This document shows, piece by piece, positions 51,545-51,895 of a DNA stretch of 64,000 nt. Origin of the DNA: Escherichia coli (GTDB taxonomy: Bacteria; Pseudomonadota; Gammaproteobacteria; Enterobacterales; Enterobacteriaceae); the NCBI RefSeq assembly GCF_030384885.1, contig NZ_CP128613.1, one strand, 5' to 3'. Each line of letters starts with the position of its first letter. Positions within the stretch are counted from its first letter, which is position 1. The notes below the pieces were generated by a model. That model ran no database searches, had not been told where the DNA came from, and saw only the letters and a program-made list of their open reading frames with translations. The position numbers and the translations under genes are program-made.

Positions 51545-51895
51545 ACCGGGCGCCACACGCCGGATGCAGCCTGCATACGGGCACAAACATAAAAATATGT
51601 GCGAACTCGTAGGCCTGATAAGACGCGTCAGCGTCGCATCAGGCGTTGTGCACCGATAGCCGGATGCGGCGTAAACGCCTTATCCGGCCTACAAACGGGC
51701 ACACCCATAAAAACAGGCGCGGACCCGTAGGCCTGATAAGACGCGTCAGCGTCGCATCAGGCACCGTGCACCGATCGCCGGATGCGGTGTGAACGCCTTA
51801 TCCGGCCTACATACAGGCGCAAACATAAAAATATGTGCGGACTCGTAGGCCTGATAAGACGAGACAGCGTCGCATCAGGCACCGAACGTCGGAGC
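51545..51895. repeat. BIME cluster of REP elements
   Basis: Multiple alternating copies of GCCGGATGCGGCGTGAACGCCTTATCCGGCCTAC and GTAGGCCTGATAAGACGCG.CAGCGTCGCATCAGGC. Confidence 0.8.

Follow-up and report, generated by a model that had tools for sequence, protein, structure and literature searches.

The DNA analysed in this study (64 kb, referred to below as the window) represents the proBA-phoE, dinB and Flag-2 region of the Escherichia coli chromosome. Its proBA-phoE stretch was 100% identical to that of E. coli 2013C-4282, which, as annotated, lacks lfg genes and carries the K-12-type lfhA'::lafU' deletion. For the Flag-2 part, searching of the 5,426 complete RefSeq E. coli genomes gave neither a contiguous match nor another instance of the arrangement seen in the window. 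Eleven reading frames, lfgB to lfgL, were located on the minus strand, and comparison with NCBIfam profiles indicated that all of them are intact and of full length. Their positions are listed in Table 1 together with those of the repeats and candidate promoters described below.

Table 1. Flag-2 genes, palindromic repeats and candidate promoters in the window, in the direction of lfg transcription
Feature	Position	Strand	Basis or remark
Perfect sigma54 promoter consensus TGGCACAGCGATTGCT	58626-58641	-	Between the divergent lfgA and lfgB, upstream of lfgB
lfgB	58254-58619	-	NCBIfam
lfgC	57820-58251	-	NCBIfam
lfgD	57107-57820	-	NCBIfam
lfgE	55881-57083	-	NCBIfam
lfgF, FlgF homologue	55144-55881	-	NF009280, E 4.8e-95
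REP triplet, lfgF-lfgG gap (178 nt)	55001-55134	-	y/z2 consensus, naRNA4
y REP of triplet, first in mRNA sense	55101-55134		y consensus
Inverted z2 REP of triplet	55052-55086		3-nt loop
y REP of triplet, last in mRNA sense	55001-55034		y consensus
lfgG, FlgG homologue	54180-54965	-	TIGR02488, E 2.3e-105
Inverted pair of a second GC-rich palindromic family, filling the lfgG-lfgH gap	54044-54155		CCCTCACCC, CCCTCTCCC-N3-5-GGGAGAGGG, GGGTGAGGG
lfgH	53311-53976	-	NCBIfam
lfgI	52196-53311	-	NCBIfam
lfgJ, 99-aa rod-binding FlgJ N-terminal homologue	51897-52196	-	NCBIfam; "rod-binding protein" in annotations
BIME-2-type array, lfgJ-lfgK gap	51559-51880	-	Three 118-bp units
z2 REP no. 1	51845-51880	+ (GTAG head on + strand)	z2 consensus, 1 mismatch
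y REP no. 1	51777-51810	-	y consensus, 2 mismatches
z2 REP no. 2	51727-51762	+	z2 consensus, 0 mismatches
y REP no. 2	51659-51692	-	y consensus, 0 mismatches
z2 REP no. 3	51609-51644	+	z2 consensus, 0 mismatches
Degenerate y REP remnant GTATGCAGGCTGCATCCGGC, internally deleted, closing the array	~51559-51578	-	Direct sequence reading
Putative LafS (sigma28-type) lfgKL promoter	51506-51535	-	TTAAGAA (51535-51529), 13 nt, GCCGCTTTTA (51515-51506)
lfgK, FlgK homologue	50099-51475	-	TIGR02492, E 5.9e-105
lfgL	49155-50108	-	NCBIfam

The lfg genes are followed by a deletion. At its junction (48757-48761), the N-terminal ~127 codons of lafW are joined to the final ~66 codons of lafU, forming a lafW'-lafU' ORF (48560-49138, minus strand) directly next to dinB; lafZ, lafA (flagellin), lafB-F, lafS (sigma28), lafT and most of lafU were removed, and the endpoints are unlike those of the K-12-type lfhA'::lafU' deletion. 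Flag-2 is probably non-functional in this strain; with its sigma28, flagellin and motor genes lost, any tuning of lfg expression is probably moot there. At the opposite end of the cluster, an ORF at 59777-60205 lies downstream of lfgM, where E. coli SMS-3-5 has flgN. It is followed at 60293-63923 (plus strand) by genes for a FliB-like lysine methylase homologue, whose weak match falls short of the NCBIfam cut-off, and for a glycosyltransferase of 823 aa. This segment is the Flag-2 variable region, presumably with a role in flagellin modification, the flagellin gene itself having been deleted in the window. Outside the Flag-2 genes, it was also noticed that the window has an Rfam IS009 RNA match (21449-21649, minus strand), a tRNA adjoining proA (36124-36196, minus strand) and, directly after phoE, a short REP-head hairpin, GCCGGATGCG-c-CGCATCCGGC (40030-40050).

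Searching the window with a 34-nt y-REP consensus, allowing up to 3 mismatches, revealed two matches in each of the lfgJ-lfgK and lfgF-lfgG gaps, and three z2-REP matches were found in the former; shuffled sequences, used for estimating the chance level, gave an expectation of 0 for both types. Together with the z2 of the lfgF-lfgG gap, these are eight canonical copies with a GTAG head and 0-2 mismatches to consensus, and all eight canonical REPs of the window sit in these two gaps, between reading frames. On the minus strand, which is the lfg coding strand, Rfam naRNA4 (RF02564, gathering score 59.5) was matched at 51612-51689 (87.9 bits), 51730-51807 (78.5 bits) and 55055-55131 (80.8 bits), each time over its full length (positions 1-77 of 77). 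The original prediction of a REP/BIME array between lfgK and lfgJ is therefore borne out by both the y/z2 consensus and the Rfam matches. The REP query sequence was matched in 5425 of the 5426 E. coli genomes, at a median of at least 29 places per genome. E. coli REPs have been defined as imperfect GC-rich palindromes with a GTAG head, 34-35 nt long for y and 35-37 nt for z2 (PMC8266576), and the lfg arrays fit this definition in both type and length.

The lfgJ-lfgK gap was 421 nt long and held three 118-bp tandem units which read, in mRNA sense, inverted z2, y, inverted z2, y, inverted z2 and a degenerate y', so that the array consists of five canonical REPs and one degenerate y. The first z2 begins 16 nt past the lfgJ stop codon on the mRNA. 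The block had been predicted to extend over 51545-51895; it does lie there, and the array proper is narrower (Table 1). A second REP pair had been placed between lfgG and lfgF at 54985-55140; REPs were indeed present, but they are three in number (y, inverted z2, y, in mRNA sense), span a shorter interval, and have their first GTAG 9 nt after the lfgF stop codon. In both gaps, inverted y and z2 elements alternate with linkers of 14 nt and ~34 nt; their 77-bp Y-linker-Z2 unit is also that of REP325 (PMC4550694). Alternating inverted Y and Z2, conserved linkers, tandem arrangement and a variable number of units are the sequence features of BIME-2, and all of them were observed. Judged by these features, both blocks are canonical, already known E. 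coli BIME-2-type arrays, i.e. palindromic repeats that are non-autonomous and of the type linked to a RAYT/TnpA(REP) gene.

Folding of the minus-strand RNA predicted very stable structures for both gaps, with a minimum free energy of -191.3 kcal/mol (z -5.3 versus shuffles) for lfgJ-lfgK and -90.3 kcal/mol (z -5.5) for lfgF-lfgG. Within the arrays, no REP stem was followed by a T-run, and the sole terminator-like hit was a weak 6-bp linker hairpin at 51728-51713. Between 49000 and 59500, 17 terminator-like hits were counted versus 12.2 +/- 4.2 in shuffles, indicating no excess. Since the REP stems have no U-tract and the hits do not surpass expectation, the arrays are not intrinsic terminators.

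The only perfect sigma54 consensus match in the window was the TGGCACAGCGATTGCT site upstream of lfgB, and a scan for sigma70 promoters between 49000 and 59500 gave nothing above shuffled expectation. Comparison across genera revealed a further candidate, TTAAGAA-N13-GCCGCTTTTA, situated between the BIME and the lfgK start codon. The comparison covered 27 Flag-2 loci whose lfgJ-lfgK gap could be measured: 22 retrieved by scanning a genome collection, those of four E. coli genomes, and that of the window. They belong to Escherichia, Citrobacter, Pseudescherichia, Leminorella and Enterobacter, and every one of them carries, in the 65-100 nt that precede lfgK, the motif in the form TTAAG(A/T)(A/T), ~13 nt, (G/T)CCGC(T/C)(T/C)T, the sequence around it being free to vary. 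A regular expression detected it in 20 of these loci, and the remaining seven, all from Citrobacter, carry GCCGCTCTT. Similar motifs occur upstream of lfgM (59424-59455, plus strand) and lafA. Scanning with the textbook sigma28 consensus (TAAAGTTT-N11-GCCGATAA) gave poor scores, and the lfgK motif emerged only from the cross-genus comparison. The motifs before lfgK, lfgM and lafA probably represent the Flag-2 LafS (sigma28) promoter consensus, which is unlike the textbook GCCGATAA -10 element.

In the lateral flagellar systems of V. parahaemolyticus and P. shigelloides, flgBCDEFGHIJ belongs to class II and flgKL forms a separate, sigma28-dependent class III unit (PMC6963403, PMC11242183); repeats, promoters and operon structure go unmentioned in the published comparative paper on Flag-2. 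We infer from the conserved motif that 51506-51535 on the minus strand may serve as a LafS-dependent lfgKL promoter, from which transcription would be expected to start near 51499. Read in this way, it places the lfgJ-lfgK array at an operon boundary, between the lfgJ stop codon and the promoter. The original prediction that both arrays sit within one transcription unit would then hold for the lfgF-lfgG array, which lies inside the putative sigma54-driven lfgB-J operon, but not for the lfgJ-lfgK array, in view of the conserved promoter motif and the class III status of flgKL. A conserved sigma28-type motif before lfgKL would redefine the Flag-2 transcription units in Enterobacteriaceae.

To compare loci, gap lengths were obtained by tblastn anchoring, and REPs were counted by their tail motif and by reading the sequences directly. 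In 18 non-Escherichia Flag-2 loci (17 for the lfgG-lfgH and lfgJ-lfgK gaps, which were measurable in that number), the lfgD-lfgE, lfgF-lfgG, lfgG-lfgH and lfgJ-lfgK gaps were 22-39, 17-33, 11-102 and 66-100 nt long, respectively. The corresponding gaps of Escherichia-type loci were 1) 22-497 nt with 0, 2, 4, 6 or 8 REPs, 2) 26, 78 or 178 nt with 0, 1 or 3 REPs, 3) 82-468 nt with either one or two REPs or else the second family as one or two pairs, and 4) 85-794 nt with 0, 2, 5, 9 or 11 REPs or, in their place, the second family. The lfgD-lfgE, lfgF-lfgG and lfgJ-lfgK gaps were thus short in Citrobacter, Enterobacter, Leminorella and Pseudescherichia, and none of the non-Escherichia sequences read, comprising all lfgF-lfgG, lfgG-lfgH and lfgJ-lfgK gaps, contained the E. 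coli y/z2 arrays. Within Escherichia-type loci, the junctions with overlapping stop and start codons (lfgE-lfgF, lfgH-lfgI and lfgI-lfgJ) were never occupied. Three records, titled Pseudocitrobacter vendiensis (L007), Citrobacter sp. MAG (L008) and P. faecalis (L010), had lfg sequences 94-97% identical to that of the window and E. coli y/z2 REPs, a resemblance suggesting that the records are mislabelled or contaminated, or that the locus was transferred recently.

Spread samples were drawn from ~1,275 Flag-2-positive complete E. coli genomes for a closer view of E. coli itself. The lfgJ-lfgK gap (58 genomes) was 175-189 nt in 48, 203 or 209 nt in 2, 253 nt in 3, 383 nt in 1 and 420 or 421 nt in 4, and the lfgF-lfgG gap (59 genomes) was 78 nt in 47, 178 nt in 7 and 26 nt, i.e. 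empty, in 5. Gaps of 26, 78 and 178 nt at lfgF-lfgG occur, for example, in VCSW7 or AR_0118, in JJ1887 and in EC31, respectively, and lfgJ-lfgK gaps of 189, 420 and 657 nt in 21AR0275, SMS-3-5 and R32_14_1F. At both junctions, the allele of the window is thus an expanded one which only a minority of genomes share; its lfgD-lfgE site is empty. Array length varied in whole units, 118 bp at lfgJ-lfgK and 100 bp at lfgF-lfgG, and in E. whittamii the lfgJ-lfgK gap was 85 nt and free of REPs. That BIMEs rank among the main sources of intergenic length polymorphism has already been documented (PMC2817692). Both the absence of the arrays in other genera and their range in E. coli, from none in some strains to many copies in others, speak against a regulatory role that was selected for and tied to position.

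The lfgJ-lfgK and lfgG-lfgH gaps were nearly never empty in Escherichia, being occupied by a BIME/REP or else by the second family. In 15 of the 17 non-Escherichia loci (L013-L029), a clade-specific GC-rich hairpin was found right after lfgG, with z scores of -2.2 to -6.4 and one outlier at 0.0, and the other two loci have an 11-nt gap; the lfgJ-lfgK gaps of the non-Escherichia loci showed no excess structure. The structured element after lfgG may be either ancestral or repeatedly acquired. The near-constant occupancy of these two gaps, taken with the lfgG-lfgH hairpins elsewhere, leaves room for selection of a structured element at some junctions.

Besides filling the lfgG-lfgH gap, the second GC-rich family, which we suspect to be the element that older literature calls "box C", occurs in the window at 61284-61391. 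By megablast, an E. coli genome has it in 6 places (median), and in some strains (L004, L007) it was found in the lfgJ-lfgK gap instead of the BIME. The gene for the REP-associated tyrosine transposase, rayT, lies outside the window. E. coli SMS-3-5 also carries the 3-unit array, and its rayT gene (254577-255074 of the record; 11578-12075 of locus L006) is flanked by REPs and separated from lfhA, at the far end of Flag-2, by 112 nt. A gradient of REPs with distance around rayT was considered but is not supported, as non-Flag-2 neighbours at similar distances were REP-free. Four junctions independently colonised, in states from empty to 11 REPs, with the second family swapping in at two of them and rayT adjoining the cluster, could be read as signs that the Escherichia-type lfg cluster is a hot spot of ongoing REP seeding, although we attach hardly any likelihood to this. 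If RAYT-driven spread of REPs were local to, or favoured at, these junctions, the allelic series would be direct evidence of REP mobility in E. coli.

We consider it likely that the arrays are ordinary BIME-2 insertions, selfish or neutral, and that any dampening or stabilising of transcripts is a by-product. BIMEs would have colonised those Escherichia-type lfg junctions at which the stop and start codons do not overlap, and their copy number would afterwards have shifted by whole units. The arrays have the 3'UTR placement of REP325: each comes shortly after a stop codon, is flanked by co-directional genes, lies on the transcribed strand and is predicted to form stable hairpins. At REP325, partly Rho-dependent attenuation lowers expression of the downstream yjdN ~8-10-fold and the upstream yjdM mRNA is stabilised (bioRxiv 10.64898/2026.03.23.713779); REPs aid Rho-dependent termination (PMC2817692). 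By analogy with REP325 and other REPs, hairpins on the lfgB-J transcript might block 3'-exonucleases and thereby stabilise upstream mRNA, and as at REP325 they might attenuate, in part Rho-dependently, transcription into the downstream genes. The lfgF-lfgG triplet would then favour lfgBCDEF over lfgGHIJ, and the lfgJ-lfgK array would cap the 3' end of the lfgB-J mRNA and act as a leaky operon-end element, limiting read-through from the sigma54 promoter of lfgB into lfgKL. By this analogy, a stabiliser/attenuator effect of the lfg arrays is plausible. The same preprint, however, describes REP effects genome-wide as strongly context-dependent and terminal REPs as not generally tied to longer half-lives, so the analogy may not transfer to lfg.

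That such effects are by-products rather than the work of a selected regulator is suggested by the absence of the arrays in other genera, the empty alleles, the unconstrained copy number and the family replacement at lfgJ-lfgK and lfgG-lfgH. The opposite reading, that selection keeps the arrays because they set the stoichiometry of flagellar parts through differential mRNA stability and partial termination within one lfgB-L unit, would make them do what REP325, their closest relative, does in yjdMN; the very stable predicted RNA structures are consistent with it, as are the palindromic elements which the lfgJ-lfgK and lfgG-lfgH gaps almost always hold in Escherichia and the lfgG-lfgH hairpin kept in other genera. 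Yet we regard it as unlikely, given that no REPs were seen in non-Escherichia Flag-2 loci, whose gaps are short at lfgD-lfgE, lfgF-lfgG and lfgJ-lfgK, that empty alleles persist (the 26-nt lfgF-lfgG gap in 5 of 59 genomes and the 85-nt lfgJ-lfgK gap of E. whittamii), and that one and the same site may hold 0 to 11 REPs, with an unrelated family replacing BIME/REP in some strains at two junctions. Moreover, lfgJ-lfgK would be an operon boundary with its own conserved promoter motif and not part of a single transcription unit, and the cluster in the window is without flagellin, sigma28 and motor genes. The polymorphism and lineage restriction count equally against a role at the DNA level, in which the arrays would be high-affinity gyrase sites, or cruciform or nucleoid-protein sites, relieving or insulating supercoiling between strongly transcribed flagellar units. 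Strong binding and cleavage by gyrase is the biochemical hallmark of BIME-2 (PMC2817692; Espeli and Boccard 1997, as cited in PMC8266576), the lfg arrays have BIME-2 architecture (y/z2, several units), and one of them lies between two transcription units; but the sequence offers no means of telling such a role from one at the RNA level. The REP325 preprint reports neither a measurable role in chromosome compaction nor HU-dependent REP-REP contacts for REP325, and the nucleoid role proposed for naRNA4, as a processed RNA binding HU, is disputed there (bioRxiv 10.64898/2026.03.23.713779). A role of this kind therefore seems to us very improbable.

It is also conceivable that the operon is silent or decaying and that the arrays have no measurable RNA or DNA effect at lfg. 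The truncation of the Flag-2 cluster in the window and the hypervariable copy number, suggestive of little constraint, are in keeping with this, and so are the context dependence of REP effects and the half-lives that, according to the preprint, are not generally longer at REP-bearing ends. Nevertheless, the eleven lfg reading frames are intact and of full length, so decay would be recent at most; the perfect sigma54 consensus still stands upstream of lfgB; and ~80% of E. coli REPs are reported as transcribed (PMC4550694). Complete inertness is thus possible in our opinion, if rather doubtful, and insertion of ordinary BIME-2 elements with transcript effects as by-products remains the preferred explanation.

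Earlier work has documented REP/BIME arrays well, including the polymorphism of their length and their effects as stabilisers or attenuators. What the present analysis adds is a series of alleles, a promoter motif conserved upstream of lfgK and a deletion shared by none of the complete genomes searched. The natural alleles of lfg, with 0, 1 or 3 REPs inside the operon and 0-11 at its boundary, offer a clean system for relating REP dosage to polarity.

Among known systems, BIME-1 (RIP-RIB), a Y-Z1 pair with an IHF-binding L linker, resembles the lfg arrays in its inverted REP pair and a ~34-nt linker with an AT-rich core. Membership in BIME-1/RIP was rejected, as the second unit is z2 instead of z1, the units are several and in tandem, and the IHF consensus WATCAANNNNTTR was found in none of the gaps. 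The malE-malF REP and other intra-operon REPs were reportedly recognised as mRNA stabilisers by Newbury, Higgins and co-workers in 1987-88. Like the lfgF-lfgG triplet, the malE-malF element lies between genes of one operon, directly past the upstream stop codon; it is, however, a REP pair in a sugar-transport operon with measured effects on mRNA half-life, whereas an effect of the triplet is inferred. REP325/naRNA4, a BIME of six Y-Z2 units that separates yjdM from yjdN in E. coli K-12, shares with the lfg arrays the 77-nt unit of y, short linker and z2, the longer spacer between tandem units, the transcribed strand, the co-directional genes and the site right after a stop codon. The lfg arrays differ in having three units (lfgJ-lfgK) or one and a half (lfgF-lfgG) and in residing in another host operon; REP325 lies inside its operon and has been tested experimentally, whereas the lfgJ-lfgK array stands upstream of a separate putative promoter and the lfg arrays are known from sequence. 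With BIME-2, as classified by Gilson, Bachellier and Hofnung, the lfg arrays have in common the y/z2 types, GTAG heads, alternation, variable unit number, extragenic site and strain-to-strain length polymorphism; no structural difference was found, and it is to this class that their sequence assigns them.
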